A stretch of 43,788 bases of DNA, taken from the IMG/VR virus record IMGVR_UViG_3300045988_166023. One strand, 5' to 3'. The stretch is from a virus. The translations under genes and the position numbers were made by a program. How positions within the stretch are numbered: position 1 is the stretch's first letter; each line of letters starts with the position of its first letter. Below are positions 1 through 43,788 of this stretch, piece after piece. Under the pieces are notes generated by a model, which saw nothing but the letters and a program-made list of their open reading frames with translations, had not been told where the DNA came from and searched no databases.

Positions 1-22
1 TAAATGGGAAGAGGAAAAATTA
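1..22 (+). repeat. Variant crossover-like site / inverted-repeat arm (partner 42473..42494); core TAAATGGGAAG
   Basis: The reverse complement of 1..22 matches 42473..42494 at 21/22 positions. Positions 1..11 differ from the shufflon core TAAATAGTAAG at 2 positions. Confidence 0.7.
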
Positions 23-119
23 TAACTTTGTCAAAGAAATTGTTGCGTAAATATTCTTAGTAGTAATTTTGAGAGTTTGATAATCAACCCAGGATACGAT
101 TCCTTCTAAATCCGACATA
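1..119. repeat. 119-bp direct terminal repeat, copy 1 (identical to 43670..43788)
   Basis: Base-by-base identity of 1..119 with 43670..43788. Confidence 0.97.
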
Positions 120-310
120 AATGGAGCGGTAAGTCCACTGCTCCCTTCGCCACTTCCAGCGACAATGATTGCCGCGCGAGTTCTTATGATATTTCCTCCT
201 GCAACTTCGGCGCAAGTTAATAAATAGCATTGTAGTTTATCTAATACATAGGTTTTTTCGGCATCCCTTGCTAGAAAACCATTTATGACTCTTTCACTAC
301 TTCTTCGTGT
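20..310 (-). CDS. Silent tail-fibre C-terminal cassette a' (96 codons plus stop, no start codon or SD)
   Basis: Hand translation of the minus strand from core 311..320, in the AAT-AGT-AAG frame, is open to TAA at 22..20: TRRSSERVINGF...KNIYATISLTKL. There is no ATG/RBS at its 5' end. Confidence 0.6.
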   Translation of the reverse strand, partial: TRRSSERVINGFLARDAEKTYVLDKLQCYLLTCAEVAGGNIIRTRAAIIVAGSGEGSSGLTAPFMSDLEGIVSWVDYQTLKITTKNIYATISLTKL

Positions 311-320
311 CTTACTATTT
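311..320 (-). repeat. Shufflon core site (CTTACTATTT = reverse complement of AAATAGTAAG)
   Basis: Exact 10-mer shared with 41406, 41677, 42223 (+) and 585, 846, 1123 (-). It contains the stop codon of cassette b'. Confidence 0.8.
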
Positions 321-584
321 AATGAAGATTTTTTTCCATGTATTACTGGACAAAGTTAATTTATTTCCTTCGATTGAAATATTAACGTCGCTAGTACTTG
401 AACAAACGATAGAGACATTACTTTTTCGTGTTTCAGCTGCTGTTATAACTGTATACATATTTGTTGTTGATGGGGATATATTATTATTGCTCAATCCTGC
501 TACAACAAGAAAATAACCAGTGTCGTATTTCAATTCAATAGTCAGCGTAACTCCCCCTTGGAGTACATACGTTTTGTAAAAACT
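315..584 (-). CDS. Silent tail-fibre C-terminal cassette b' (89 codons), paralog of expressed cassette A
   Basis: In frame with core 585..594. It ends ...SIEGNKLTLSSNTWKKIFIK, versus ...SIEGNKLTLCSTAWKKIFIK in 41206..41682. The only candidate start is a TTG with no SD. Confidence 0.7.
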   Translation of the reverse strand, partial: SFYKTYVLQGGVTLTIELKYDTGYFLVVAGLSNNNISPSTTNMYTVITAAETRKSNVSIVCSSTSDVNISIEGNKLTLSSNTWKKIFIK

Positions 585-594
585 CTTACTATTT
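585..594 (-). repeat. Shufflon core site (reverse complement of AAATAGTAAG)
   Basis: Exact 10-mer. It abuts the TAA stop of cassette c' (594..596). Confidence 0.8.
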
Positions 595-845
595 TATTCG
601 GCAGAGAAGTACTTCCAGTCTGACCAAGCATTGCTATTTCTTTTTCGGCGTATAGCAATCTTATCACTTCCGAAAGAAAAAGCAAGCTGGCAGTTAAAAG
701 CATTGTTCGGATTCTGTTGAATAACAATACACCCATTGCTGCCGAGACTTTCAGGAAGGCCAACGGGATTGACTGCTGTTCTCAATATTATTGCATTAGG
801 AGGACTATCTAAATCATTTATACCTGTCGCAACAATCTGAGAACC
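594..845 (-). CDS. Silent tail-fibre C-terminal cassette c' (83 codons)
   Basis: In frame with core 846..855 (…QNSK|GSQIVATG…). It ends ...NSNAWSDWKYFSAE, sharing the G/N-x-x-DW tail motif with cassettes C, D and d'. The track ORF 594..920 extends spuriously upstream of the core. Confidence 0.65.
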   Translation of the reverse strand, partial: GSQIVATGINDLDSPPNAIILRTAVNPVGLPESLGSNGCIVIQQNPNNAFNCQLAFSFGSDKIAIRRKRNSNAWSDWKYFSAE

Positions 846-855
846 CTTACTATTT
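846..855 (-). repeat. Shufflon core site (reverse complement of AAATAGTAAG)
   Basis: Exact 10-mer. It contains the TAG stop of cassette d' (850..852). Confidence 0.8.
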
Positions 856-1122
856 TGTCGCAATAGATTTCCAATCTCCGATATTACCATCAGCGATTTT
901 TCTTGTGTAGATGTTTCCATTTACGACTGCTATGCTCCATCCGTAATTGGCAGCATCCTTATACGTAAAAAGGACACCATTTCCTCTTTCGCCCGGCTGA
1001 CCGGGTACGCCATTTGAAAATCTTCTGATTGAAATAGTCCGAGGGGCGAATGTTTCGAAGTCTGCATTTAAATCGTCAGACGGTGTAAGGGTGTTATTTG
1101 AGTTTGCAGCAAGAGAAAAACT
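850..1122 (-). CDS. Silent tail-fibre C-terminal cassette d' (90 codons)
   Basis: In frame with core 1123..1132 (…SNSK|SFSLAAN…). It ends ...GNIYTRKIADGNIGDWKSIATK. The upstream extension of track ORF 850..1203 runs through a terminator hairpin and has no SD. Confidence 0.65.
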   Translation of the reverse strand, partial: SFSLAANSNNTLTPSDDLNADFETFAPRTISIRRFSNGVPGQPGERGNGVLFTYKDAANYGWSIAVVNGNIYTRKIADGNIGDWKSIATK

Positions 1123-1140: not shown

Positions 1141-1167
1141 AAAAAACAGCTCCCACAGGAGCTGTTT
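1141..1167 (-). terminator. Rho-independent terminator (minus-strand polarity)
   Basis: Stem AAACAGCTCC / GGAGCTGTTT (1144..1153 / 1158..1167) with a 4-nt loop. On the minus strand the GC core is followed by TTTTTT. Confidence 0.6.
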
Positions 1168-4450: not shown

Positions 4451-4498
4451 ATAAATCATCCTTTCTTCTGTGTAAAAAAGGGTATAAAAAATACACCC

Positions 4499-4527
4499 TA
4501 TACAATTGTTAGGATGCATGGTATAAT
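4499..4527 (+). promoter_or_regulatory. Sigma-A-type promoter (TATACA, 17 nt spacer, extended -10 TGgTATAAT) divergent from int
   Basis: Read directly: -35 at 4499..4504; TG at 4519..4520; TATAAT at 4522..4527. Confidence 0.5.
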
Positions 4528-21816: not shown

Positions 21817-23580
21817 ATGCTAGAGCCGGAATACCTTGAAAAATTTTCAGATCAGCTACTTGCCCTGGTTGATGCGTTAAGCACAGCGATTATAGCAGAT
21901 ATGGCAAAACGTCTTGTAAAAACCGGAGAAATAACGGAAACTTCAAGACGACAAGCAGAAATTTTGCAGGGAGCGGGGCTCCTTTATAAGGATGTTCTAA
22001 AGCGTGTTTCGCAGGTTTCTGGATATATGAATACAGAAGTGGAAAGAGTTTTTGAGGAAGCGGGAGTAAGAAACCTCAAGAATGAAGCAGTTATTTATAA
22101 AGCTGCAGGTGAAAAAGAGATAAAACTTCATCAGTCAGAAACGATGCAGAAGATTCTTGCAGCAAATGCAAGAAAGACAAAAGAAGAGATTAATAATCTT
22201 ACTTTAACAACGGCTGTTAAAACGCAAAGTGCTTACATAACCGCTTGCAATAAAGCAATGATGAAAGTACAGACCGGGGCTTTTAGTTATGATAAAGCGA
22301 TTGCGGATGCAATTAAGGAAGCGGCGGTGCAGGGAACCGAGGTTTTATATCCATCCGGGCATGTAGATAAGTTAGACGTAGCAGTAAGGAGAGCCGTTCT
22401 AACCGGGGTAAATCAGTCGGCAGCGGAAATGAATCTTCAATATGTCAAAGAGTCTGGCTGTGATCATGTAGAAACAACCGCCCACTCAGGAGCAAGACCA
22501 ACTCATGCAGTGTGGCAAGGAAAAGTCTTTTGTGTTTCTGGAAAAGATAGCAGATATCCTCCATTTTATGAAAGTACCGGATATGGAACTGGTGCGGGGC
22601 TTTGCGGCTGGAACTGTCGGCACAATTTTCATGCGTTCTTTCCTGGAATATCTGCACCAGCTTATTCACAGGAAATGCTTGACGATTATAGTGCCAGAAA
22701 GTACGAGTACAATGGTAAAAAATATACAGAGTATGAGTTGAGTCAGATGCAGCGTTCACAGGAAAGAAAGATAAGAGCAACAAAAAGAAAACTTACAGGA
22801 TATGATGCTGGAATAAAAAATACAGATAGTAATACATTAAAAGCAGAGCTGACAAATAGGTTTGAAAGTGAGTCAGCAGAGTTAAAAAAGCAGGAGAAAT
22901 CTCTTAAAAAATTTTGCAGGCAAACCGGAAGAAGGTATGAGTCTGCAAGGACACAAGTTCATGCAGTATTGGATTCAGAAGAAAATATCGTTGGATTTAA
23001 TAAAAGCGTTGCACAGAAAGCGGTATGGGCAAGTAAAAGACATACATCTAAGATGCAGATGGCGAAGCAGCTTGATAAGTTGTCAGATGAGGAAAGATTG
23101 GCAGTGCAAAGATATACAGGCTTTGCCGCTCACCGGGTAAACCGGGCACTGTATTCCGGCAAGCCGCAAATGATTGAAAAAGAGCGGGAGTATATGAACA
23201 TATTGGATTCTGCATTGGATAAGGGAGTTGCTGAGCATAAGATGGTCGTTCATCGAGATACGATACCAGAGTTCTTGAATGCATTTCCGAAAGGGTTTGA
23301 GTATTCTGAACATGATATGGAGAGATTGGTAGGAAAAAAGTTAACTAATATTGGTTATACGTCAACTTCATTTAGAGATATTCAATATGGAGGAAGAAAT
23401 GTACATCTTGAAATAGAAGTGCCAAAAGGATATAGAGGTTGCCTATATATAGAAAGGCTGGCAAGCCCCAAATATAAATATCAGCAAGAAGTATTGTTTA
23501 AGAGGAACTTTCGGTATATAATCAAAGATATCAAAAAAGAAAACGGAAGGTATTATATGAAAGCGGAGGCAATCTTATGA
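21817..23580 (+). CDS. SPP1 gp7-like minor head protein fused to a C-terminal ADP-ribosyltransferase (C3/VIP2-type) domain
   Basis: The central part has gp7-family character (…HSGARPTHAVWQGKVF…GWNCRH…). The C-terminal ~160 aa carry the R / STS / QxE triad (VVHRD, GYTSTSF, YQQEVLF). Confidence 0.75.
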   Translation: MLEPEYLEKFSDQLLALVDALSTAIIADMAKRLVKTGEITETSRRQAEILQGAGLLYKDVLKRVSQVSGYMNTEVERVFEEAGVRNLKNEAVIYKAAGEKEIKLHQSETMQKILAANARKTKEEINNLTLTTAVKTQSAYITACNKAMMKVQTGAFSYDKAIADAIKEAAVQGTEVLYPSGHVDKLDVAVRRAVLTGVNQSAAEMNLQYVKESGCDHVETTAHSGARPTHAVWQGKVFCVSGKDSRYPPFYESTGYGTGAGLCGWNCRHNFHAFFPGISAPAYSQEMLDDYSARKYEYNGKKYTEYELSQMQRSQERKIRATKRKLTGYDAGIKNTDSNTLKAELTNRFESESAELKKQEKSLKKFCRQTGRRYESARTQVHAVLDSEENIVGFNKSVAQKAVWASKRHTSKMQMAKQLDKLSDEERLAVQRYTGFAAHRVNRALYSGKPQMIEKEREYMNILDSALDKGVAEHKMVVHRDTIPEFLNAFPKGFEYSEHDMERLVGKKLTNIGYTSTSFRDIQYGGRNVHLEIEVPKGYRGCLYIERLASPKYKYQQEVLFKRNFRYIIKDIKKENGRYYMKAEAIL

Positions 23581-30698: not shown

Positions 30699-33600
30699 AT
30701 GTCTGCGGATGGACATATTGAGATTGAAGTTGAGCTTAATTCTGAAAAAGCAGAAAAGGAGCTTGATAGTTTAAGCAAAAGCCTTGAAAAAGACACTGCA
30801 CAAGCTGCAAAAAAAGCGGAAAGTTCTGTTAAGCGGTCAGTAAAACAGATAGAAACTTCTGCGAAACAGGCTTCCAAGCAGACAGAAAGCTCTGCGAAAC
30901 AGGCAGGACAGGAAGTAAAAAATACAGCCAGTTCTGCGAGTAAACAGGTGATTGATTCTGCAAAAAAGGCAGAAGAAGAAGTAAAGAAATCAAGTAAAAG
31001 AGTAACAGAAGAAGAGAAAAAACAGTATAAGGAACGGGAAAAGACCAGAGAATCCAGTAAACCAGAGTCGGATCCAAGCAAGCCTTATAAAGAATCTTCT
31101 GAAAAGGCTACACAGTATTGGACGGGTGCCGGCAGCAAGATAAAAAGTATTGTAAGTACGATTACGGCTGCTACTGGTGCTGGAGCAGTTGCCGCCGGCA
31201 CAGCTGCTATTAATGCGGGGAAGTCTTTTGAAGCTGGGATGGGAGAAGTGCAGGCAATCTCTGGTGCTTCCAGAAAAGATTTAGAAGCATTAACGAACAA
31301 GGCGAAAGAAATGGGGGCTACAACAAAGTTCTCTGCTACGCAAGCTTCAGAAGGACTTAAGTATATGGCCATGGCTGGCTGGAATTCACAGCAGATGATA
31401 GATGGTCTTCCTGGTGTCATGAATCTTGCAGCAGCGAGCGGTGAAGATCTCGGAACGGTTTCTGATATTGTGACAGATGCCCTCACAGCTATGGGATTAA
31501 AGGCAAGTGATAGTGCTCACTTTGCGGATGTATTAGCAACAGCGGCAAGCAGTTCTAACACAAATGTGGCAATGATGGGTGAAACATTTAAATATGCGGC
31601 ACCACTTGCTGGAACACTTGGATACAACATAGAAGATTTATCTCAGGCAATCGGATTAATGGCAAATGCAGGAATCAAGGGAAGCCAGTCAGGTACATCT
31701 TTAAGAAGTATACTTACACGCCTTGCAAGCCCTCCATCCGATGCGGCGAAAGCTATGGAAAAGTACGGAATTTCCATTAAAAACTCCGATGGTTCCATGA
31801 AGTCCCTTATGGAAGTGATGGAAAACATGAGGGATTCGCTACAAGGACTTCCGGAAGATGAGAAAGCCGCCGCCGCTTCTGCACTTGGCGGCCAGGAAGC
31901 AATGTCTGGATTGCTTGCAATCATAAATGCAAGCGAGTCAGATTTTGATAATTTATCAAAAGCGATTGATAATGCATCTGGAGCGGCACAGGATCAGGCC
32001 GATATCATGAATGATAACCTACAGGGGGCATTATATGAATTAGGCTCTGCTGCAGAGTCGGCAGGAATTGAATTGTATGATAATATCAAGAATCCTGCTA
32101 AGAAAGCTGTTAGAGCTGCCGCGACAGAAATCCGGAGTTTATCGACCACGATAAAAGACAACGGCATTGAAGCGATTATCCCAGAAGAAACGATTACGAC
32201 TGTGAAAAACTTAGGTACTACTGCAAAGGCTGTTGGTGCTGGTGGTTTAAAAGTTCTTGGAGGAGCAGCGCAGTTTGCCGGTGAAAATATTCAGACTGTA
32301 CTTCCAGTAGCAGCTAGCTTGTTGACGGTTGTTAAGGGGTATACGGTCGTAAAGACGATTTCTACTGCTTTTGCGGAGACGCAAGTTGCTATGGCTGGCG
32401 CAAGCACGGGAATGACGATTCTTGGAACAGTTGTGAAGTTGTTCACAGGAGAAGCATTGGCAGCCACTACAGCAACAGGGCTTCTTTCTGGAGCGATTGG
32501 TGTATTGGCGAATCCTATTGCATTAGCAGTTGTTGCCGGTGGAGCATTAACGGCCGGAATGGTTGCTTATACTTTAACACAGAAAAAAAGTACAACTGAA
32601 GCAGATAAGTTTGCACAGTCTTGCAAGAAATTGAAAAAGGAACAGGATGAAGTAGCAAGTTCTATTCGTTCCATGCATAAAGATAATGCGAAAAATGTCA
32701 ATGATGTAAAGACCCAAGGAGTTCAGGCAGATAATCTTCTCTCTAAATTGAAGAGTCTGATTGGTGTACAGGAAAAGGATGCTGGAACAAAACAGCAGAT
32801 AAAAAGTACAGTACAGCAGTTAAATGATATCTTACCGGATTTGAATTTACAATATGACGAGCAGAAAGATAAGCTGAATCAATCCACTGCGGCAATCAAA
32901 AGAAACATTCAAGCTTTAAAAGAGCAGGCAATGGCAAAGGCATATCAGTCAGGAATGGAAAGTGCAGCAGAAAAAGTTGCAGAGGCTGAGGTAGCTAATC
33001 AGAATGCGACAGAGAAGTATACGGAAGCACTTGAAAAGAAGAATGCAGCGCAAGAAAAATTTGATAAGCTTGAAAAAGAAAAGGGACTTGGAAGTGGAAA
33101 TAAAGAGTTAGCTAAAGCCGCAGAAGATTTAATGAAATATGAGAAGAGCCTGCAAACAACAGAGAAAGCTCTTGATAAATCAGAAAAGAATCTTAATGCA
33201 GCCAACAAAGAACTCACAACATATTCTGATAAATTTACAACTCAGACAAATTATAGTGATTTTCTTTCTAATTTAGACAAACTTGCGAAAGATGCCGGAA
33301 TAAAAGCAAAGAAAATTCCAGAGACAGTATTAGAAAACATTAAAGCCGGAAACTATAAAGCTCCAACTACGGGGGAAGACTTAAAAAGGCTTATTAATCT
33401 TGACGGATTAATTCAACAGGCACAGGAAGCCGGAGTGGAAATTCCTCAGTATTTATTGCAGGGTATTTCAGATGGCTCGATAAACTTCCAATCAGCGATT
33501 AATCAGATGAACACGCTTCTGGATTTTAGCAGTGCAGCAGAAAAAGCTGGCATTTCTGGAAAAGAAATTCCGGAAGAACTAGCTCAAAGCATCATGCAAG

Positions 33601-35825
33601 GCAAAATCAGTGTTGATGAGGCAATAAATCAACTGCTTAGCGGTTCTGAAGAAAAAATGGCTAAGATTAAGAAGAATGTTGAAGATATTGGAAATGGCAA
33701 GATTAAAGGGATAAATACCTCAGCTTATACTTCATCGCTTAATACAGTGAGTCAGAAAGCAAAGAGTACTGCAAAAGATACGGATAAAAGCAACAAAGAG
33801 ATTAAGAAAAATAGTAAGTTAAAAGGTACTAACAATACAGCAGCGGCTAAACAGACCTATGGCGCATATAAAACAGAAGGCGAAAAAGCAAAGAATACTG
33901 TAAAGAAGACAGGAAAAGAGATTGGAAAAGGCGGAGCAACCAGTGCGGCTTCTACAACTTCGCAGTGGAAATCTGCTGGTAGTAAAAATGCTAAGTCATA
34001 TATTTCTGGCGTAGCATCCCAAAAAGGAGCGGCTCAAAAAGCAGGAAAAACGCTATCTACTTCTGCAAAGACAGGTGCAAGTTCCGGAAAAGCCGGATTT
34101 GTGTCGGCCGGAAGAAACATGGCCGCAGGCATCGCATCTGGTATTCATTCTGGTACTCCATTTGTAACAGCAGCGGCTAGAAGTGCGGTAAGAGCAGCGG
34201 TAAAGGCGGCACAAAAGGCAGGAGAAATTAAATCACCATCCAGGGTGATGAAAAATGAGGTCGGTAAATACCTACCTCTCGGCATGGCAGCTGGCATCAA
34301 GGATAATACCGATTCTGTAGTTAATGCATCAAGAGCAATGTGTGCCTCAGCTCTAACAGCTTCTGCAGATGAACTTGATATTCATTCTCCTTCTCGGAAG
34401 TTCAAGAACATTATCGGAAAGAATATCCCGAAAGGCATTGCAAAAGGTGTAAGAGAATCTAAAAGCGAGCTTGTCGGAGAAATGGAAAGTGTTGTGAACG
34501 AAGCACTTAGTGCGGCACAAAATGCTTCTAAAAATGGAAATTATTCTGAAATAGGAAGCAATCTGCTGTCTGGATTATCTACATCGCTGAGTACATCAAA
34601 GTCTCGTTCCTCTGAAACAATACAGGAAATTATTGATCAACAGCAAGAAAGTCTATCTAATGCCAATCAGAAGAAAGAAGAGGCACTTCAAAGTAAAATT
34701 GATAAGCTAGGAAGCAAAAAGGCAAACAAGAAGAGAAAAGCCGCCTTAAAGAAAAGGCTCAAGCAGATGAAAGCTGCAGATAAGAAACAGGAATCACAGC
34801 TTAAAACGTCTGGCGAAAAGGCGGCTGCAGCATATAATGATGCCTTTGAAAAGGAAGCTTCCCGTATTACTAAGATTGCAGAAAAGAAGATACAGGAATT
34901 ATCAGAAACCTATCAGACAAAGTATAACGATATCAAGAATAGGATGGACACTCTCACAGAAAAACAGCAGTCCTGGGGGAATGTTTATGATCTGAAACAG
35001 AATATTGCAGATATTAAGAGATATCAGGAAAATTTAAAAGCCCTTGAAGGCAGAATCCCAGAGTCAATGATGAATAAGATTCTTGGGATGAATATGGATG
35101 AAGCAACAGCTTATATGGACTGGTTCAGGGGAATGACAGCAACAGAGCAGAAAGCGTATTTGAACGATTGGAATGCTATTTATTCTTCTTCAGAAACTTT
35201 TTCAAAAAACTTTTTTACCGATGACTTTGCAAAGATTCAAAAGGAATATGAGTCTGAACTGAAAAAGGCAACAGATAATCTGTATACGGAGATGAACCAG
35301 ATTGGAGCAAACATTGCAAAAGGACTTACTGCAGGAATGGACAGTGAGTCGAGAAACCTTTCTAAAGCAATGAAGAAGATCTGTAACAATCTTATAAATA
35401 CTGCCAAAAAGGAGCTGAAAATAAAATCTCCATCAAGGGTATTTAAGCGGATTGGTGTTTATAACATACAAGGAGCCGAAAAGGGACATGAAGCAGAAGC
35501 TCCGCGACTTTACCGTCAGGTTGAAAATGTATCAGAGACCCTTGCAGAGCGTTTTGCAAAGGCAAACTTAAAAGTATCTCTTCCGGATATTGCAGGTCGA
35601 ACACAAGCGGCTTTATCGAGACAGGTATCAAAAGTATCTGCAAGTATTCAGCCTCAGCTTACAGCGGCACTGGCAGGAGATGCAGGTCAGACAATTTACA
35701 ATGGACCAGAAAAGATTGAGCTTGTGACTAATCTCGACGGACGAGAAATAGCAAGAACTTCTGTGCCTTATATTGATGCGTACTTAGGAAATATGGCAGC
35801 TAGAAAAGCAAGAGGGGGCGTTTAA
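30699..35825 (+). CDS. Tail tape measure protein (1708 aa)
   Basis: TP901-type TMP core (…AGMGEVQAISGASRKDLEALTNKAKEMGATTKFSATQASEGLKYMAMAGW…), TM-like Gly/Ala segments and long coiled coils. Confidence 0.9.
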   Translation: MSADGHIEIEVELNSEKAEKELDSLSKSLEKDTAQAAKKAESSVKRSVKQIETSAKQASKQTESSAKQAGQEVKNTASSASKQVIDSAKKAEEEVKKSSKRVTEEEKKQYKEREKTRESSKPESDPSKPYKESSEKATQYWTGAGSKIKSIVSTITAATGAGAVAAGTAAINAGKSFEAGMGEVQAISGASRKDLEALTNKAKEMGATTKFSATQASEGLKYMAMAGWNSQQMIDGLPGVMNLAAASGEDLGTVSDIVTDALTAMGLKASDSAHFADVLATAASSSNTNVAMMGETFKYAAPLAGTLGYNIEDLSQAIGLMANAGIKGSQSGTSLRSILTRLASPPSDAAKAMEKYGISIKNSDGSMKSLMEVMENMRDSLQGLPEDEKAAAASALGGQEAMSGLLAIINASESDFDNLSKAIDNASGAAQDQADIMNDNLQGALYELGSAAESAGIELYDNIKNPAKKAVRAAATEIRSLSTTIKDNGIEAIIPEETITTVKNLGTTAKAVGAGGLKVLGGAAQFAGENIQTVLPVAASLLTVVKGYTVVKTISTAFAETQVAMAGASTGMTILGTVVKLFTGEALAATTATGLLSGAIGVLANPIALAVVAGGALTAGMVAYTLTQKKSTTEADKFAQSCKKLKKEQDEVASSIRSMHKDNAKNVNDVKTQGVQADNLLSKLKSLIGVQEKDAGTKQQIKSTVQQLNDILPDLNLQYDEQKDKLNQSTAAIKRNIQALKEQAMAKAYQSGMESAAEKVAEAEVANQNATEKYTEALEKKNAAQEKFDKLEKEKGLGSGNKELAKAAEDLMKYEKSLQTTEKALDKSEKNLNAANKELTTYSDKFTTQTNYSDFLSNLDKLAKDAGIKAKKIPETVLENIKAGNYKAPTTGEDLKRLINLDGLIQQAQEAGVEIPQYLLQGISDGSINFQSAINQMNTLLDFSSAAEKAGISGKEIPEELAQSIMQGKISVDEAINQLLSGSEEKMAKIKKNVEDIGNGKIKGINTSAYTSSLNTVSQKAKSTAKDTDKSNKEIKKNSKLKGTNNTAAAKQTYGAYKTEGEKAKNTVKKTGKEIGKGGATSAASTTSQWKSAGSKNAKSYISGVASQKGAAQKAGKTLSTSAKTGASSGKAGFVSAGRNMAAGIASGIHSGTPFVTAAARSAVRAAVKAAQKAGEIKSPSRVMKNEVGKYLPLGMAAGIKDNTDSVVNASRAMCASALTASADELDIHSPSRKFKNIIGKNIPKGIAKGVRESKSELVGEMESVVNEALSAAQNASKNGNYSEIGSNLLSGLSTSLSTSKSRSSETIQEIIDQQQESLSNANQKKEEALQSKIDKLGSKKANKKRKAALKKRLKQMKAADKKQESQLKTSGEKAAAAYNDAFEKEASRITKIAEKKIQELSETYQTKYNDIKNRMDTLTEKQQSWGNVYDLKQNIADIKRYQENLKALEGRIPESMMNKILGMNMDEATAYMDWFRGMTATEQKAYLNDWNAIYSSSETFSKNFFTDDFAKIQKEYESELKKATDNLYTEMNQIGANIAKGLTAGMDSESRNLSKAMKKICNNLINTAKKELKIKSPSRVFKRIGVYNIQGAEKGHEAEAPRLYRQVENVSETLAERFAKANLKVSLPDIAGRTQAALSRQVSKVSASIQPQLTAALAGDAGQTIYNGPEKIELVTNLDGREIARTSVPYIDAYLGNMAARKARGGV

Positions 35826-35826
35826 A

Positions 35827-36540
35827 ATGTACAGAGGAAGATTAGGTGTGCAGATTGGAAACAAGCATACCCTTAAGGACTGGGGACTTGGTTGGACAAA
35901 AATTACTCTTGGTTTTCCAGAGGCAAAAACGTATGAGCAGGATATTCCGGGAATGGACGGAGTGTTGGATTTTACGGAATCTCTTACTGGAGGGGATGTG
36001 AAATACAAAATCAGAACCCTTACTCTTGAATTTGAAACCCCTGAACAGGACTATTACGATTGGAGTATTAGAATTTCAGAGATAGCAAATTACTTGGCCG
36101 GAAGAAAATATAAGATAATCCTAGATAATGACCCGGATTTTTATTATATTGGAAGGCTAAATGTTGAAGTCGAAAAATCAGACAGGGTAGAAGGAACTCT
36201 TATTTTGTCTGGAAGTGTTGCTCCATATAAATATGAAAAGTTTTCTAGTCTTGAAAACTGGGAGTGGGATACTTTTAATTTTAGAACAGGAATCATCCGA
36301 AATTATAAAGATATTTCCGTAGATGGTACATACAAACTTGTTATACCTGGCAGGAGAAAAAGAATCGTGCCGGTAATCTCCTGTGATGCAGCTATACAGG
36401 TATCTTACGAAGGAGTAACTTATGATCTTTCACCTGGCAAAAACAAAGTTTTTGGTATCTGTATCAAAGAAGGAAAGAATATTCTTACTTTTTCCGGAAC
36501 GGCAACCATTTCGGTTGATTATAGAGGAGGAGTATTGTAA
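35827..36540 (+). CDS. Distal tail protein (Dit)
   Basis: 237 aa, immediately after the TMP, as is canonical for siphoviruses. Confidence 0.65.
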   Translation: MYRGRLGVQIGNKHTLKDWGLGWTKITLGFPEAKTYEQDIPGMDGVLDFTESLTGGDVKYKIRTLTLEFETPEQDYYDWSIRISEIANYLAGRKYKIILDNDPDFYYIGRLNVEVEKSDRVEGTLILSGSVAPYKYEKFSSLENWEWDTFNFRTGIIRNYKDISVDGTYKLVIPGRRKRIVPVISCDAAIQVSYEGVTYDLSPGKNKVFGICIKEGKNILTFSGTATISVDYRGGVL

Positions 36541-37931
36541 TGTATCGTATTTATTGTGATGATAAAACGTTGCATGATGTGCGGGATGAAGAATATCAAC
36601 TTATAGCTCCAAAAATTTCATTAGAACTTAATAAGACAGGAAGTTTTGAGTTTGGAATGCTTCCATCTCATCCTCATGCAAACGATATAAAGAAATTAAA
36701 ATCTCGATTAAAAGTATATGACGTTGACGTATCAGATAGTGGGGAGGCTTCAAGATTACTATATTGTGGCCGTTCCATTACTGATCAGCGAGACTTTGAA
36801 TATACTGGTCAGATTACATGTGAAGGTGAGTTATCTTATTTGCTCGACACGATTCAGCGGCCGCATACTTACGGAAGCCAGTCAGGAGAAATCCATAAAG
36901 CGGATACTAATATTGCAATCTTCAAGCGTTTGATAGAAGAGCATAACTCTCAGGTAGAAAAAGAAAAGCAGTTTGAAATAGGAATTGTTGATATTGATTC
37001 AGTAGAAATCAAAACTTTGGCGACAAACTATGAAACTACCTGGGATTTTATTAATACGAATTTCCTTGAAAAATACGAAGGTTATCTTAGGGTGCGCTAT
37101 GAAAATAATGTTCGTTACCTTGACTATGTGAAGCAATACGGAAAAGTCAGTACGCAGGTAATCCGATTCGGAGAAAATCTTCTTGATTTTCAGAAGTATG
37201 TAAAAGCAGAAGACATTAAAACGGCAATTATTCCAATTGGAGCAAACAATGTAACTATAAAGACGGCAAGCGGGCACGATGGAAAGGATTATGTTTTTAA
37301 CCAGGAGGCGGTAAATCTTTACGGTTGGATATATAGTAAAGTAGATTTTTCGGATATTACCGACCCGAATACCCTTTTAGAAAAAGCACAGGAATATCTT
37401 AAAAAGAGTATCAATCTTGCGATAACTATCGAGCTGACGGCGGTAGATTTGCATATGGTAGATGTTGATATTGATTCTATCGGGCTGGGAGATTTCATTC
37501 CTTGCGTATCGCAGTATCATGGATTACTTAGTACACTTGGTGATGTATCAACTTATTATCTTGTCAGTAAATACGAGATAGATCTTGAAAATCCGGCAAA
37601 TACGAAAATCACATTAGGTAAAACTTTATCAGTGTTATCAGAAAAGATGGCTTCCAATGCAAACCTTAAAAGTGACATTCGGACAGTGGCAAGCAGCATG
37701 GAGGGGATTAAAGGAACCTCAAAGGAAGCCTATGACAAATCGGTGGAGGCAATGAAGGTAGCACAGGGAATTACCTTTGACACAATCTACCCCATCGGTA
37801 GCATCTATATGAGCGTAAACGATATAAACCCAACAGAACTCTTTGGTGGCAAATGGGAACTATTAAGTAAAAGTGAAACCATTCCCATTTATTACATGTG
37901 GGAAAGAAAGGAGGATGACGTTGATAAATGA
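36540..37931 (+). CDS. Tail-associated (Tal-like) minor structural protein
   Basis: 463 aa, following Dit. The C-terminal motif is YPIGSIYMSVNDINPTELFGGKWELL. Confidence 0.6.
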   Translation: MYRIYCDDKTLHDVRDEEYQLIAPKISLELNKTGSFEFGMLPSHPHANDIKKLKSRLKVYDVDVSDSGEASRLLYCGRSITDQRDFEYTGQITCEGELSYLLDTIQRPHTYGSQSGEIHKADTNIAIFKRLIEEHNSQVEKEKQFEIGIVDIDSVEIKTLATNYETTWDFINTNFLEKYEGYLRVRYENNVRYLDYVKQYGKVSTQVIRFGENLLDFQKYVKAEDIKTAIIPIGANNVTIKTASGHDGKDYVFNQEAVNLYGWIYSKVDFSDITDPNTLLEKAQEYLKKSINLAITIELTAVDLHMVDVDIDSIGLGDFIPCVSQYHGLLSTLGDVSTYYLVSKYEIDLENPANTKITLGKTLSVLSEKMASNANLKSDIRTVASSMEGIKGTSKEAYDKSVEAMKVAQGITFDTIYPIGSIYMSVNDINPTELFGGKWELLSKSETIPIYYMWERKEDDVDK

Positions 37932-39987: not shown

Positions 39988-41199
39988 ATGCAGACAGAAA
40001 ATACATATGTTGAAACCGATTTGGGCAATATTGCACTAAATCCCAGAGGCGAGTATTCGGGTGAGGCATCGTATGAGTATTTAGATACCGTTTCGTATAT
40101 GGGCGGCTCATATGTGTGTCTTGCAGAACTGACAAAAACCATCAGCGGAATTGCACCGGAAGAAGGCAAAAATACGGAACACTGGCAGATGCTGACCTTG
40201 CCGGGCGGATTAACGTCAGACTACATCGCAATGCATGACGATGTAGTCAACAAGGCAAAGCAGGTTGAAACATCCAGGGCGGCTGTAGAGCTGTCTCAGC
40301 AGGAAGTTGAAGACGCACAGGCAGATGTGAGCCAGATGCGGCAGGCTACGCAAGAAGCATCCGAGGAGGCTGCTGCAAGCCGGGACAGTGCGGCAGGCTA
40401 CGCTCGGTCAGCAGAGGCATCAAGGACGGCAGCAGCGGAATCTGAACAGAATATCAACGCGCAGGTAACTGGCTTTGATACACATGTTGCAGAGAAAATC
40501 TCTGCAGCAGAGTCGACAGTTGAAGAAGCGAGAAAAAAAGCTATTGATGCAATTACGACACAGCAGGATACGTCTACGAAAGCGGTTACAGATGAGGGAA
40601 CAACACAGACAAAAATGGTCGGAGGTGCAGGCAATACAGCAGTTAGTGCTGTAGCAAAACAACAGGCAGCATCCGTACAGGCGGTAGAAGATGCTGGGAC
40701 AGCACAGGTAACAGCAATTGAGAGTGCTGGTAATGAACAGATAACGGAAGTTAATAAAGCCGGCACTACGCAAGTGGAAAATGTTGAAGAAGCAGGAAAT
40801 CAGCAGAATGTAATCCTTACCGAAGCGGCAGCGCAGGAATTGATTAAGTTGCAGGAAGTCGCAAAACAGTTTGCCGAAGACCATGAGCAAATTGAGACGA
40901 ATAAAGGTAATATAACTACACTGACGGAGAAAAAAATCCAAGCGTGGTTTCCAGGAAAAACTACAGAGGATTCAACAATTACTACTAAAGAGAGTGCTTT
41001 AAGCGATACGGCAGGCAATACGATTCTTGACCTCGCAGGAAATGAGATCGGAACAACTGTTGAAGTAGTAGTTCCCAAACCCCCGTATTATTTGGGAGAC
41101 CTTTGGATAGCTGACGATGCAATATATATTTGTACAACAGCACAAGAAACAGGAAAATTTAGATTATTCGACTGGTTAAAGATTTTAGAAAGGAAGTAA
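39988..41199 (+). CDS. Tail fibre shaft protein with 11-residue A-G-x-x-Q repeats
   Basis: Ala/Glu/Thr/Gln-rich. It has phased repeats AVEDAGTAQVT / AIESAGNEQIT / EVNKAGTTQVE / NVEEAGNQQNV. It sits directly upstream of the variable tip gene. Confidence 0.6.
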   Translation: MQTENTYVETDLGNIALNPRGEYSGEASYEYLDTVSYMGGSYVCLAELTKTISGIAPEEGKNTEHWQMLTLPGGLTSDYIAMHDDVVNKAKQVETSRAAVELSQQEVEDAQADVSQMRQATQEASEEAAASRDSAAGYARSAEASRTAAAESEQNINAQVTGFDTHVAEKISAAESTVEEARKKAIDAITTQQDTSTKAVTDEGTTQTKMVGGAGNTAVSAVAKQQAASVQAVEDAGTAQVTAIESAGNEQITEVNKAGTTQVENVEEAGNQQNVILTEAAAQELIKLQEVAKQFAEDHEQIETNKGNITTLTEKKIQAWFPGKTTEDSTITTKESALSDTAGNTILDLAGNEIGTTVEVVVPKPPYYLGDLWIADDAIYICTTAQETGKFRLFDWLKILERK

Positions 41200-41205
41200 T
41201 AGATT

Positions 41206-41682
41206 ATGGCAAATTGGAAAGAATACACAACAAAAACGACACCAGAAGATGCAGATGAGATTGTGATTGCCGACACCAAGGCAAATGCAAATAAGAGAAC
41301 CCCATTCAGCGGATTATGGAACTGGATTGCAAATAAATTAGCAACTGCAGTAATCTCGCAGTTAGAGACTCAAAACAAGTCAATTATTCCGGCTCTCAAT
41401 GAATTAAATAGTAAGCGTCTTAGGGCATATACACTTAAAGCAAACTCTACTCTGACTATCGAATTAGAGTACGACACTTGTTATTTTCTTGTTACAACAG
41501 GAATAAGCAATAATGATATACCTCCTTTAACAACAAATGTGTATACAGTTACGGTAGCAGCCAAAACACGAAGCAGTGATGTCTCTATCATTCATTCGGA
41601 TATTAGCAACATCGAGGTTTCAATCGAAGGAAATAAATTAACTTTGTGTAGCACCGCATGGAAGAAAATCTTCATTAAATAG
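41206..41682 (+). CDS. Phase-variable tail-fibre tip protein: constant N-terminus (aa 1-70) currently fused to cassette A
   Basis: GAAAGGAAG SD. Codons 67-70, L-N-S-K (tta aat agt aag), contain the shufflon core at 41406..41415. The C-terminal 88 aa are paralogous to the inverted cassette b'. Confidence 0.8.
   Translation: MANWKEYTTKTTPEDADEIVIADTKANANKRTPFSGLWNWIANKLATAVISQLETQNKSIIPALNELNSKRLRAYTLKANSTLTIELEYDTCYFLVTTGISNNDIPPLTTNVYTVTVAAKTRSSDVSIIHSDISNIEVSIEGNKLTLCSTAWKKIFIK
41406..41415 (+). repeat. Shufflon core site AAATAGTAAG at the expression junction
   Basis: Exact 10-mer in frame inside the fibre gene, at the boundary between the constant and variable parts. Confidence 0.8.
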
Positions 41683-41686
41683 TAAG
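41677..41686 (+). repeat. Shufflon core site AAATAGTAAG
   Basis: Exact 10-mer. It contains the TAG stop of cassette A (41680..41682). Confidence 0.8.
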
Positions 41687-41974
41687 CCATTCATGATACG
41701 TCTTCCTGTGTCTGTAAGCTTGCAGGATACCATTGCCACAATATCAATTGATATTGCCGATGCTGAACGAGGTGTAATTATTCTCACTGGTCGTTTCGGT
41801 GGAGAAATTTATTTTTCCTCAATTATCAACTATGGCTCAACATGGGACGTAAAGCAGGTGGTCTTCGCCGGTAGCAACACCATTAAAAATGAGCAAAACA
41901 AAAAAGTTCTTACCATAACCAGCGCAAAAGCTATTTCCAGCAAATATGAGGTCAATGCACTATTGATTAAATAG
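41687..41974 (+). CDS. Silent tail-fibre C-terminal cassette B (95 codons)
   Basis: Open in the AAT-AGT-AAG frame of core 41677 (NSK|PFMIRLPVSV...NALLIK). There is no SD before the internal ATG 41693. Confidence 0.6.
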   Translation, partial: PFMIRLPVSVSLQDTIATISIDIADAERGVIILTGRFGGEIYFSSIINYGSTWDVKQVVFAGSNTIKNEQNKKVLTITSAKAISSKYEVNALLIK

Positions 41975-41978
41975 TAAT
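41969..41978 (+). repeat. Shufflon core site, variant AAATAGTAAT
   Basis: 9/10 match to the core. It contains the TAG stop of cassette B. Confidence 0.7.
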
Positions 41979-42224
41979 GCTGTACCTAAAAAGCTTTTGT
42001 TTGAACATACGTCAATCGAGGCAACTTATAAAGAAGCTAAAGTAGGGATAAGTTTTTGTAAAGCACAAGGAGCATCAGATTTTCCGCTTCCTAACCCATT
42101 AACATTAATAATTAACGTAAAGAGCGGGGAAGAATGGGGAATGCAATACGCATTGACTTCGGTAGGAAAAATCTTTACTCGTCCAGTTAACAATGGTGTT
42201 TTTACTGACTGGATTCAAGTTTAA
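41979..42224 (+). CDS. Silent tail-fibre C-terminal cassette C (81 codons)
   Basis: Open in the core frame (NSN|AVPKKLLFEHTS...GVFTDWIQV). There is no ATG or SD. Confidence 0.6.
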   Translation, partial: AVPKKLLFEHTSIEATYKEAKVGISFCKAQGASDFPLPNPLTLIINVKSGEEWGMQYALTSVGKIFTRPVNNGVFTDWIQV

Positions 42225-42232
42225 ATAGTAAG
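42223..42232 (+). repeat. Shufflon core site AAATAGTAAG
   Basis: Exact 10-mer overlapping the TAA stop of cassette C. Confidence 0.8.
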
Positions 42233-42475
42233 GCTACATCGAAGGTAATAACCGCTGAAAATCTTGAGAAGGAATTCGCAAATTTCCCGAGCAATAGTAT
42301 CTCTTTTTTACAGTGTCAAAGCGCTATTGATAATCCTCGAAAGGGAATGCTAGCTTTATGCATAAACTACAAAACTTCACCAGCTTGGGGTTTTCAATAT
42401 TTATTTTCGTATAGTAACATTTACTTTCGGAACATTGGGAATGGAACATTTGGCGATTGGCAACAAATCAAATAA
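42233..42475 (+). CDS. Silent tail-fibre C-terminal cassette D (80 codons; absent from the ORF track)
   Basis: Hand translation in the core frame: NSK|ATSKVITAENLEKEFANFPSNSISFLQCQSAIDNPRKGMLALCINYKTSPAWGFQYLFSYSNIYFRNIGNGTFGDWQQIK, then stop. It shares the G-x-F-x-DW tail with C, c' and d'. Confidence 0.6.
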   Translation, partial: ATSKVITAENLEKEFANFPSNSISFLQCQSAIDNPRKGMLALCINYKTSPAWGFQYLFSYSNIYFRNIGNGTFGDWQQIK

Positions 42476-42494
42476 ATTTTCCTCTTCCCATTTA
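42473..42494 (-). repeat. Variant crossover-like site / inverted-repeat arm (partner 43670..43691 = 1..22)
   Basis: TAAATTTTCCTCTTCCCATTTA matches the reverse complement of 1..22 at 21/22 positions. It contains CTTCCCATTTA, the reverse complement of TAAATGGGAAG. It starts at the stop codon of cassette D. Confidence 0.7.
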
Positions 42495-42517
42495 ATTGAT
42501 TTGTGAACAAAGCACTT

Positions 42518-42541
42518 CTTATGGCAAAATTAAGCCATAGG
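42518..42541 (+). promoter_or_regulatory. Hairpin sequestering part of the recombinase SD
   Basis: CTTATGGC / GCCATAGG stem (8 bp including one G-U pair) with an 8-nt loop. Its 3' arm overlaps the GGAGG at 42540..42544. Confidence 0.35.
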
Positions 42542-42552
42542 AGGTGCTTATT

Positions 42553-43551
42553 ATGACTGAAATTGAGAAGATTCAGAGCAAAATTTTAATGAGAATGCAG
42601 GATGTTTTAGACAATGAGCAATTACAGAAACTTGAGAACGTATTAGTTCTGGAGTTTCACAACATTGAAGTAAAACAGGAATGTACAGATTTGGTAACTT
42701 CGGAGCGGCATTGGGAGAAAATACTTCGAACATTTCTGGCAAGCAAGAGGATCGAAAACTGTTCAGAAGGAACGCTGAAAAGTTATAATGATTGTGTAAC
42801 AAGATTAATAACAACACTGAATAAGAGACTACAGGATATAACAACAAATGATATCCGGTATTACTTAGCGATGTATCAAGAAACAAGGAAAATATCTATG
42901 AGCTACTTAGACACGATTAGACGATATCTGAGTAGCTTTTTCGCCTGGGTGTCTGATGAAGGGTATATTCAAAAAAACCCCATGAGACGATTGAAGAAAA
43001 TAAAGGTTCCGCAGACAATCAAAAAGCCTTTTACACAGGCAGAAATGGAGCACTTAAGATGCAGTGCGGAATGTCAGAGAGACATTGCGATAATGGAATT
43101 TCTATATTCGACAGCGGCACGTATAGGTGAAGTCATAAGGCTTAACAGAAGGGATATTAATTGGGAAGGGAAAGAGGTAATCATTTACGGTGAAAAGGGT
43201 AAGAAAGAAAGAAAGGTGTATTTGACAGATGAGTGTGCATATCACTTAAAAAAGTATCTGTTCGCACGAACGGATATGAATCCAGCTTTGTTCGTGAGCA
43301 ATAAGCAGCCACACAGCCGTTTGGGAAAGCAAGCAATACAGTCGATGTTGCGGACACTGGGAAAGAAGACAGGAATCCACGCTCATCCGCATAAATTCCG
43401 AAGGACACTTTTAACGGATGCCGGAAACAGAGGAATTCCACTGCAGGAAATCCAAGCCTATGCAGGTCACCAGAAACCAGATACAACGATGCTATATGTA
43501 ACGGTTAGCGAAGAAAATGTGAAAGCATCTTTTAGAAGATATATAGCCTGA
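42553..43551 (+). CDS. Tyrosine recombinase (XerC/D- or Rci-like), candidate shufflon invertase
   Basis: SAM-like N-domain. Catalytic residues lie in STAARIGEV (R), HPHKFRRT (H-x-x-R), GHQKPDTTMLY (H, Y). GGAGGTG SD lies 7 nt before ATG 42553. It sits between the two cassette arrays. Confidence 0.9.
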   Translation: MTEIEKIQSKILMRMQDVLDNEQLQKLENVLVLEFHNIEVKQECTDLVTSERHWEKILRTFLASKRIENCSEGTLKSYNDCVTRLITTLNKRLQDITTNDIRYYLAMYQETRKISMSYLDTIRRYLSSFFAWVSDEGYIQKNPMRRLKKIKVPQTIKKPFTQAEMEHLRCSAECQRDIAIMEFLYSTAARIGEVIRLNRRDINWEGKEVIIYGEKGKKERKVYLTDECAYHLKKYLFARTDMNPALFVSNKQPHSRLGKQAIQSMLRTLGKKTGIHAHPHKFRRTLLTDAGNRGIPLQEIQAYAGHQKPDTTMLYVTVSEENVKASFRRYIA

Positions 43552-43669
43552 CAAAATGATTCTATACAGATTTTTCAAACCGGCAGAAATGGCGGTTTAT
43601 TCTGCGTGTTTAAAAAGTGAGAGACTAGAAGGGAGAATAAGAGAAAATCAAGAAAATGAGGTGTTAAAC

Positions 43670-43788
43670 TAAATGGGAAGAGGAAAAATTATAACTTTGT
43701 CAAAGAAATTGTTGCGTAAATATTCTTAGTAGTAATTTTGAGAGTTTGATAATCAACCCAGGATACGATTCCTTCTAAATCCGACATA
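43670..43788. repeat. 119-bp direct terminal repeat, copy 2 (identical to 1..119)
   Basis: Base-by-base identity with 1..119. Confidence 0.97.

Follow-up and report, generated by a model that had tools for sequence, protein, structure and literature searches.

A cassette array around a nested Xer-like tyrosine recombinase in the tail module of a phage genome

In the R64/IncI shufflon, the tyrosine recombinase Rci acts at sfx sites to place alternative PilV C-termini on a constant N-terminus, by inversion only and without deletion; the sfx site measures 19 bp (a 7-bp core and a conserved 12-bp arm), the rci gene lies outside the invertible segments, and we know of no second site class in that system. 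Gin of Mu, Cin of P1, Min of p15B and Pin of e14 are serine invertases that depend on an enhancer and on Fis and swap tail-fibre C-termini to alter host range, the invertible segment of these switches also carrying a fibre chaperone gene and yielding two to six variants, with Min as a multi-segment case. An embedded tyrosine recombinase is found in type I restriction-modification hsdS shufflons such as the pneumococcal ivr/SpnD39III locus with CreX and HvsR of Mycoplasma pulmonis, which has two site classes; to our knowledge, no flip of the recombinase alone has been described for these loci. The present analysis concerns an array in the window, by which we mean the whole 43,788-nucleotide stretch of virus record IMGVR_UViG_3300045988_166023, whose source contig is circular (positions 1-119 = 43670-43788). 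Eight alternative C-terminal cassettes of a small tail protein lie there, four on either side of a gene for a Xer-like tyrosine recombinase, and with a probability of roughly 85% we regard them as an active multiple-inversion shufflon that swaps the C-terminal domain of a small tail-tip protein.

A system of this kind was not a described one according to the first-pass annotation of this DNA, a claim that fails because the Rin shufflon of Bifidobacterium breve and Bifidobacterium longum prophages has a phage-encoded tyrosine invertase acting on a receptor-binding protein (RBP), with 11-bp rix sites, a constant RBP N-terminus, variable C-termini of 95-100 amino acids (aa) and multiple inversions confirmed by reads (Mavrich et al., 2018, PMC6109161), and has also been found in Eggerthella lenta prophages (PMC8778435, 2022). 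The likeness is close: in both systems a phage-encoded tyrosine recombinase with core-binding and catalytic domains and no arm-binding domain is encoded next to the RBP locus (a putative RBP here), a short asymmetric site precedes each cassette and recurs in the expressed gene, in both orientations and converging, and a constant N-terminus is combined with alternative C-termini (~95-100 aa in Rin, 83-99 codons here) by inversions at the repeats. For the comparison, 59 rix-bearing loci were recovered from IMG/VR by the rix pattern (TTCCCTAACCC), the open reading frames (ORFs) being examined in one of them, L111; the rix sites converge (x> x> <x <x) and number at most five per locus. Rin differs in that rin lies outside the array at one end in L111 (x> x> <x <x <rin), whereas the recombinase here is central and flips, and in that the Rin protein (L111 6857-7732, 291 aa, PF14659 N-domain) has no BLASTP similarity to the window recombinase (PF13495 N-domain; E = 4.3). 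The site sequence is unrelated to rix, the constant part comprises 168 aa in Rin and 70 aa here, the Rin hosts are high-GC Actinobacteria whereas the host here is a Firmicute, and only the present side of the comparison has the v sites as a further class and as many as 15 cassettes in an array.

With the R64 shufflon the locus shares a tyrosine recombinase, multiple inversions, short asymmetric sites with one conserved arm, a constant N-terminus of a surface adhesin with alternative C-termini, and the occurrence of inversions without deletions. The R64 target is however a plasmid pilus adhesin and not a phage tail protein, the recombinase here is nested, no Rci-type NCBIfam match was obtained for it, and its site differs in sequence from sfx. 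Phage DNA inversion that swaps tail-fibre C-termini is common to Gin, Cin, Min and the present locus, but the enzymes belong to the serine family there and to the tyrosine recombinases (PF00589) here. The hsdS shufflons resemble the locus in the recombinase gene embedded among invertible half-genes and, in some cases, in the use of more than one class of inverted repeat with one recombinase; their target is a DNA-specificity subunit, in contrast, their repeats are longer and lie within coding sequence, and the systems are cellular rather than phage-borne. Judged by sequence comparison, the system would thus work like Rin and R64 Rci/sfx while belonging to neither family and forming a lineage separate from Rin. 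It is distinguished by an Xer-like recombinase nested in invertible DNA, by two site classes, by up to 15 cassettes drawn from a large shared pool and by its high prevalence in human-gut Lachnospiraceae phages. No shufflon of a Lachnospiraceae or Firmicutes phage was found in the full-text literature searched, which spans only part of the journals.

The cassette array and its core sites

The array begins in the ORF at 41206-41682 (+), which encodes 158 aa, with N-S-K as residues 68-70. On the circular genome the order is N-term - c>A c>B c>C c>D <v (leader hairpin - recombinase - terminator) v> a'<c b'<c c'<c d'<c, all eight cassettes being oriented towards the recombinase. A short asymmetric core (c) site precedes all eight and lies within the expressed gene, four sites per orientation. 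The parts of the two arms are as follows.

41206..41405, +: constant N-terminal coding region, residues 1-67, of the last gene of the tail module
41406..41415, +: core c1, the expression site; AAATAGTAAG, read as N-S-K (residues 68-70), at the helix/beta-domain boundary
41416..41682, +: cassette A, expressed in this arrangement; stop TAG inside core c2
41677..41686, +: core c2, exact AAATAGTAAG
41687..41974, +: silent cassette B, open in the N-S-K frame; identical sequence on the N-terminus in public protein P0062
41969..41978, +: core c3, one-base variant AAATAGTAAT, read as N-S-N; the same N-S-N junction in public protein P0063
41979..42224, +: silent cassette C; expressed in P0063 and in loci L005, L006 and L007
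42223..42232, +: core c4, exact AAATAGTAAG
42233..42475, +: silent cassette D, inner-left; ends 1 nt before the left v site
20..310, -: silent cassette a', inner-right; ends 1-2 nt before the right v site; expressed in P0023, P0121 and loci L092-L098
311..320, -: core c5, exact AAATAGTAAG
315..584, -: silent cassette b', paralog of A; identical sequence expressed in P0007 / L004
585..594, -: core c6, exact AAATAGTAAG
594..845, -: silent cassette c'; 78/86-identical copy in the arrays of L001-L003
846..855, -: core c7, exact AAATAGTAAG
850..1122, -: silent cassette d'; identical sequence expressed in P0046 / L001-L003
1123..1132, -: core c8, exact AAATAGTAAG; outer right limit of the invertible DNA
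1144..1167, -: terminator-like hairpin just outside the array

Exact AAATAGTAAG occurs eight times in the window against 0.17 expected, a count attained in none of 100 dinucleotide shuffles. Seven of these copies and the one variant AAATAGTAAT each stand before an open cassette, which gives the eight cassette sites. Across related loci the full c site spans 12 bp, A-T-W-AAATAGTAA-G/C, with no conservation outside them. The remaining exact AAATAGTAAG, a ninth core-like copy, lies within the tape-measure gene (33809-33818, +) without the A-T-W left flank; since its left flank is unlike that of the true sites it was rejected as a member of the system, and the copy is probably a chance occurrence, one that would invert 7.6 kb of tail genes if it were used.

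Behind each of the eight cores the AAT-AGT-AAG frame stays open for 83-99 codons, counting N-S-K/N, and in the first 40 codons of each silent cassette no Shine-Dalgarno (SD)-like motif was found upstream of an in-frame ATG, GTG or TTG. The reading frames of cassettes A, B, b' and d' close with an AAA-TAG that lies within the core that follows, the stop of c' is a TAA that includes the first A of the core and that of C a tAA that includes its first two As, whereas D and a' stop 1-2 nt ahead of an inverted 18-mer, TTTTCCTCTTCCCATTTA (42477-42494; 43670-43687 = 1-18). The core is read in three frames and is therefore conserved as DNA. By sequence the cassettes fall into paralog groups, A with b' and, sharing an xDW-ended tail, C, D, c' and d' (GVFTDW, GTFGDW, NAWSDW, GNIGDW). 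The C-terminus of the 403-aa tail protein encoded upstream (41100-41199) ends ...GKFRLFDWLKILERK and resembles this DW tail; BLASTP of the 459-, 237- and 403-aa upstream tail proteins against all cassettes gave no matches.

The same relationship between core and frame was looked at in relatives. Scanning IMG/VR with the recombinase gave 79 loci, or about 95 together with other contigs, and these hold 408 complete cassettes, 299 of them distinct, which form 203 clusters at 90% identity and 105 at 30%. Individual arrays carry 2-15 cassettes, with one left and 14 right in each of L018, L093 and L094. The pattern of stops holds among the 299 distinct cassettes, 154 of which end in or on the next core, 61 just before the v site and 84 elsewhere. 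In clades with AAATAGTAA or AAATAGCAA, all cores with an open cassette face the recombinase (c> c> REC <c <c), and the few odd matches lack an open cassette. The only clear exception to convergence is in the left arm of L015, where cores at 3997 (-) and 4012 (+) stand head to head, 15 bp apart.

The array had thus been described well by the first-pass annotation. Its positions for the recurring 10-mer, direct on one arm and inverted on the other across the circular junction, were all recovered; its list of seven exact cores and one variant stands except for the copy at 33809, which it missed. It had counted the open frames at 80-96 codons, had seen no SD-preceded start in the silent segments (borne out for the first 40 codons), and had placed six stops within or against the next core and those of D and a' at a variant repeat, the core being kept as DNA; all of this agrees with the present results, as do, in substance, its paralog groups.

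That the cassettes are exchanged is indicated by public proteins. A search with the 158-aa protein returned 240 of them, many of which combine a 93-100% identical 70-aa N-terminus with unrelated C-termini; the shared part ends ...IIPALNELNSK/N, and the homologues diverge directly past ...NELNSK. Six of the seven silent cassettes occur elsewhere on the same 70-aa N-terminus, a' and D as near matches: on inspection, P0007, P0046, P0062 and P0063 match b', d', B and C, P0023 matches a' with few substitutions (identity judged by inspection), and P0104 expresses a D-like cassette that is roughly 85% identical by eye. The contigs that encode these fusions share the architecture of the window. The proposed mechanism starts from this arrangement, in which only the first cassette is translated, the c site supplying N-S-K in frame with the 67-aa constant N-terminus.

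Comparison of assemblies shows the rearrangement itself. L007 1-859 equals L005 5611-6469 at 99.9% identity, while L007 845-2353 equals the reverse complement of L005 7002-8510 at 97%, with the junction in the core. L094 and L093, which come from two different human metagenomes (two people), have flanks of 7,989 bp and 1,146 bp at 100% identity, and between these flanks cassette blocks, mostly of 267-319 bp, are 99.6-100% identical and stand in a largely different order, the block borders overlapping by ~10-15 bp. Such rearrangement without point mutation is as expected of a fast site-specific process. In the second step of the mechanism, which the public assemblies bear out, a left-arm c site recombines with an inverted right-arm c site, and everything between them is inverted, including the recombinase gene; a right-arm cassette is thereby placed behind the N-terminus, and repeated rounds permute the cassettes while all still face the recombinase. 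The earlier proposal that inversion at the core joins a new C-terminus to the constant N-terminus is thus strongly supported by silent cassettes expressed elsewhere and by inversion isomers that break in the core. From isomers found in different samples, switching within one population appears plausible. The exact 27-mer across the junction of N-terminus and core had no match in IMG/VR, the close lineage being absent there at 100% identity, and a blastn comparison of the locus with 50,697 phage records yielded one weak match only, without a cultured relative in that collection.

The nested recombinase and a second pair of sites

The centre of the array is occupied by the following features.

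42477..42494, -: left v site; reverse complement TAAATGGGAAGAGGAAAA; its core AAATGGGAAG (42484-42493) faces away from the recombinase
42501..42556, +: recombinase leader hairpin, 16 bp; buries the SD GGAGGTG (42540-46) and extends to the ATG
42553..43551, +: Xer-like tyrosine recombinase, 332 aa, the candidate shufflon invertase, nested in the array
43577..43605, +: terminator-like hairpin past the recombinase gene, within the v-flanked segment, read from sequence
43670..43687 (= 1-18), +: right v site; TAAATGGGAAGAGGAAAA; inverted relative to the left v site

The recombinase combines a SAM-like core-binding domain (PF13495) with a catalytic one (PF00589, 1.8e-30) and lacks an arm-binding domain; R190, H280, R283, H306 and Y315 are all present. 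Its alignment to XerA/XerD spans residues 60-328, and the closest PDB structure is the XerA-like 4a8e (3e-29). NCBIfam models for XerA, XerC, XerD, XerS and the FimB/E type match, all under their cut-offs (XerA_Arch, the best, at 203.6 bits vs 220; XerC at 136 vs 335; XerD at 126 vs 330). Scores below the curated cut-offs and a gene nested in the cassette array of a phage tail module set the protein apart from the XerC/XerD/XerA chromosome-dimer resolvases. A role as the lysogeny integrase was rejected because a separate integrase is encoded at 3356-4519; with this canonical integrase elsewhere in the genome, the nested gene is therefore a second recombinase. The presence of a 332-aa tyrosine recombinase between the plus and minus arrays had been recognised from the first, and the proposed comparison with hidden Markov models of the Rci, Xer and integrase families places it as Xer-like below cut-off without an Rci-type match. 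The earlier layout needs amending in one respect, namely that the recombinase gene, while it does lie between the arms, is itself within the invertible DNA and is inverted along with every cassette inversion. In 19 loci the N-terminal gene and the recombinase gene share a strand, and in 6 they lie on opposite strands, a split that is expected if array inversions carry the recombinase along.

Each clade of the recombinase tends to have its own core sequence.

Recombinase identity to the window at least 78%: core AAATAGTAA
Recombinase identity 74-75% (part of the clade): core AAATAGCAA
Recombinase identity 65%: core AAATAGTGA
Recombinase identity 63%: core AAACAGTAA
Recombinase identity 40%: core TAAATGATAATTTA

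This sequence relationship supports the earlier suggestion that the adjacent tyrosine recombinase drives the array. As the third step of the mechanism, the nested Xer-like recombinase would catalyse the inversion, as its catalytic residues, the separate lysogeny integrase and the change of core with clade suggest. In the three most distant clades the layout is simpler (c> <c REC c> <c), with cassettes tail to tail.

A second site class, v, is formed by an 18-bp perfect inverted repeat around the recombinase that reads ATTAAATGGGAAG outward from it. The outer bases of its core region, ATTAAATAGTAAG, are common to c and v, whereas the central trinucleotide differs (AGT in c, GGG in v). In all clades of at least 72% identity, v occurs on either side of the recombinase wherever the flanking sequence is available and marks the edges of a conserved module, left and right v varying in step across six sequences (AAATGGGAAG, AAACAGGAGT, AAATCGGAGT, AAATAGGGAG, AAATGGGAGG, AAATCGGAGA). 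Only 12-22 codons are open beyond v, and no cassette is found there; the segment that v bounds holds the recombinase gene, the SD-sequestering leader hairpin and the terminator-like hairpin.

Sixteen cassette clusters were found adjoining either end of the recombinase, with two exact reciprocal pairs. L007 and L001 match at 99.3-100% identity in five segments, and they differ in the direction of the v-bounded segment. In L038 and L051 every segment is 99.4-100% identical, the two inner cassettes are swapped and the orientation of the recombinase to the outside flank is unchanged, an arrangement that needs one c x c and one v x v event. L027 and L030 have a reciprocal arrangement of inner cassettes around a v-bounded segment that is 99.8% identical and co-oriented, the flanking cassettes being in reverse, one 100% and the other 92.9% identical. 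Recombination between c sites cannot part an inner cassette from its end of the recombinase; such separations are seen, and inversion between v sites therefore occurs. From these sequence comparisons we conclude that recombination between the two v sites reverses the recombinase gene and nothing else, with the enzyme inferred. The variant repeat of the first-pass annotation is thus correctly placed as the point where D and a' end, but it is more than a cassette end, forming a second, separate pair of inversion sites that flips the recombinase. In the fourth step of the mechanism the inverted v pair (AAATGGGAAG) accordingly inverts the recombinase gene by itself, the inversion resting on the locus comparison and the same enzyme being the presumed agent; in the fifth, AGT vs GGG, if it falls in the strand-exchange region, would block c x v exchange, so that the two inversion reactions would stay separate. 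Inversion at v may serve to reset how the recombinase is oriented with respect to late transcription; alternatively, v could be a diverged relic of the c> <c REC c> <c layout, and its distinctness from c would stop flips of single cassettes.

The leader hairpin of the recombinase has a minimum free energy of -26.9 kcal/mol (z = -5.8). Of 31 leaders from all clades (recombinase identity 63-100%), nearly all are predicted to form a counterpart, with differing stem sequences and L049 as an exception; RNAalifold on a MAFFT alignment of the leaders found no structure, the 5' arms being misaligned, so the hairpin is a matter of single-sequence folds. It looks like translational attenuation of the invertase, and in the sixth step of the mechanism sequestration of the SD would hold recombinase output low and switching at low frequency. 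The hairpin at 43577..43605 is conserved in position, with compensatory stem changes in other clades; a simple terminator scan made no call there.

Competing explanations

Several observations count against an active shufflon as set out above, or against parts of it. Cassette c' was in the expressed position in none of the proteins examined. The L007/L005 pair reaches no more than 97% identity over the recombinase segment. No two of the isomers share a sample, and what was compared are assemblies. One arm can retain as many as 14 c sites in direct repeat, so that deletion must somehow be suppressed. The 19:6 bias in orientation is not statistically robust when related loci are collapsed. The hypothesis that heterology keeps c and v apart would depend on where the crossover lies, and a single enzyme would have to act on both c and v. 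On the structural side, Foldseek E-values are just 1e-3 to 0.15, none below 1e-3, with TM-scores of ~0.35-0.4, and the mean pLDDT (predicted local distance difference test) of the AlphaFold2 (AF2) models is 65-69.

A wider version of the same account, which is put forward tentatively, has one recombinase carry out two separated reactions, a c x c shuffle and a v x v regulatory toggle of its own gene, and has the cassettes move in integron-like manner between co-resident phages. Mobile cassettes would explain the 299 distinct cassettes in 105 clusters at 30% identity and the arrays of 2-15, as well as single cassettes shared at 100% identity by phages with backbones 3-19% apart. Phages that reach no more than 81-97% identity in the recombinase and N-terminal regions have single cassettes or pairs in common at 99.7-100% identity (L004 6196-6794 vs window 1-599; L001 vs L005), and the identical blocks begin and end at cores. 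By sequence, this suggests cassette-wise horizontal exchange between phages, possibly by intermolecular site-specific recombination.

If the v repeats were instead conserved ends of the module, such as operators or accessory binding sites, the flips would be rare illegitimate or assembly events. No cassette follows v, a flip of the recombinase alone has no evident function, and assemblers can be misled by short inverted repeats, all of which would fit; we nevertheless find this improbable, given three independent locus pairs with a clean recombinase-only flip, 99-100% identity and breakpoints in v, the sixteen clusters at both recombinase ends, the joint variation of left and right v, and the ordinary cores with cassettes at the homologous positions in the 40-65% clades.

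Inversion by another enzyme, either the phage integrase (3356-4519) or a host invertase in trans with the nested gene as a passenger, is very unlikely. The link between recombinase and site rests here on sequence comparison rather than biochemistry, and trans-acting invertases are known (Mpi of Bacteroides fragilis, cited in PMC6109161), but core variant and recombinase clade vary jointly, the catalytic residues of the nested enzyme are conserved, and the same module of recombinase, c and v sites occurs with a different constant N-terminus and tail module in Anaerobutyricum soehngenii.

About as unlikely is an array of static paralogous fragments whose arrangements arose by slow homologous recombination or mosaicism, with the recombinase as a second integrase or a Xer-type dimer resolvase. 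It would agree with the different samples of all isomers, with the resemblance to XerA/C/D and with the passage of cassettes between diverged phages; yet rearranged loci are 99.3-100% identical per segment with breakpoints inside a 10-25 bp repeat, RecA-type recombination needs more than a 12-bp repeat, the core varies with recombinase clade, the recombinase is nested in the array in essentially every locus for which both flanks are available, and a canonical integrase is present elsewhere in the genome. It is likewise very unlikely that the seven segments behind the expressed gene yield small proteins of their own, such as alternative fibre tips or chaperones made at the same time, despite an in-frame ATG at codon 6 of cassette B and the many cassettes called as genes by ORF callers, in view of the missing SD ahead of any in-frame start in the first 40 codons, the half of the cassettes that are antisense to the late operon, the six of seven silent cassettes found elsewhere in frame with the N-terminus, and an AF2 beta domain that starts right at the junction.

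Tail context, predicted folds and distribution

The array gene is the last of a siphovirus-type tail module, recognised by Pfam matches for the tape measure, Dit and Tal proteins.

30699-35825: tape measure protein
35827-36540: Dit
36540-37931: Tal, followed by three proteins of unknown function and then the array gene
3356-4519, -: canonical integrase, longer than the nested recombinase

The structure prediction proposed earlier for the N-terminus joined to a cassette was run for A-type and C-type fusions, and in both a helix is followed by a compact domain with the junction at N-S-K. In the AF2 model built on aligned A-type proteins, confidence is low for residues 1-34, residues 35-67 form one long helix and 73-157 an eight-strand beta domain (beta-sandwich) with pLDDT 82-93, so that the swap point falls exactly at the predicted helix/beta boundary; in the C-type fusion the same helix leads into a different small alpha/beta domain. 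The best Foldseek neighbours in the PDB are without exception parts of phage tails, namely an Acinetobacter phage tailspike, 6c72 (E = 1e-3) and T4 gp9 for the A-type, and phage K gp144, R-pyocin fibres and the RBP of the staphylococcal phage phi11 for the C-type. Gene position and the type of predicted fold make receptor binding by the cassettes a reasonable inference, and a change of host range by cassette swapping would follow from it. In the seventh and last step of the mechanism the cassettes would be receptor-binding head domains, giving up to eight adsorption specificities per population and up to 15 in relatives.

The 90%-identity cluster of the recombinase has 437 members, among them WP_216411780.1 from Anaerobutyricum soehngenii (Lachnospiraceae), and this cluster alone indicates that the system is common in human metagenomes. 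Anaerobutyricum and related Lachnospiraceae, abundant producers of butyrate, appear to be the hosts of these phages, and host range is the main unknown for gut phages. Each phage has a built-in library of 2-15 tail-tip domains, the pool as a whole exceeding 100 unrelated families; a single prophage sequence would therefore stand for many adsorption phenotypes, and host prediction from one arrangement can mislead. Array loci also break assemblies, and their cassettes get annotated as separate hypothetical genes. The c/v pair amounts to a natural experiment in restricting a Xer-like enzyme to inversion and in keeping two site classes apart, and its principles could serve in multi-state DNA switches.

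The same recombinase, c and v module stands behind another constant N-terminus (...TLLQALNELNSK) and a 1022-aa tail protein in L161 and L158-L160. L161 is contig JAHLPL010000006.1 (182 kb) of A. soehngenii assembly GCA_018917895.1 and ends at the last base of the right v site, which gives an indirect hint of active inversion; sites lie only ~270 bp apart, any point of an array is near one, and distances from contig ends to the nearest site are therefore uninformative. A scan of a genome collection yielded one locus, L008 (CAVBVT010000014.1), with the same AAATAGTAAG core and an 85% identical recombinase; it is labelled Eggerthellaceae bacterium, which conflicts with the Anaerobutyricum link and therefore may reflect mis-binning of the metagenome-assembled genome. 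L053 (809-1624) and L054 (3201-4016) have a recombinase copy that matches residues 61-332 only, with unrelated DNA upstream and two cassettes (a', b') downstream, and may be decayed arrays.

Recombinases of 29-32% identity occur in isolated phages, among them Clostridium phage phiCs5676-1, phiCp-D and Terrisporobacter phage TPELB_ph1. On checking for a cassette array, phiCs5676-1 and TPELB_ph1 showed no repeated core and were rejected as members. The Xer-like "integrase" of TPELB_ph1 (L010, PP197244.1 17645-18640), 32% identical, lies between a 577-aa tail protein and a holin, and that phage has a second integrase.

Past the array of the window follow a conserved 174-aa ORF, a holin and a GH25 endolysin. 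The 174-aa ORF (1292-1816), of unknown function, stands after the array and before the holin in most related loci that reach that far, and just upstream of it lies a 16-pair hairpin with a T-run (1229-1264), overlapped by a promoter-like site. In the head module, minor capsid protein 2 (21817-23580; PF06152, 2.3e-98) bears a C-terminal ADP-ribosyltransferase exoenzyme domain (PF03496, 9.4e-21).

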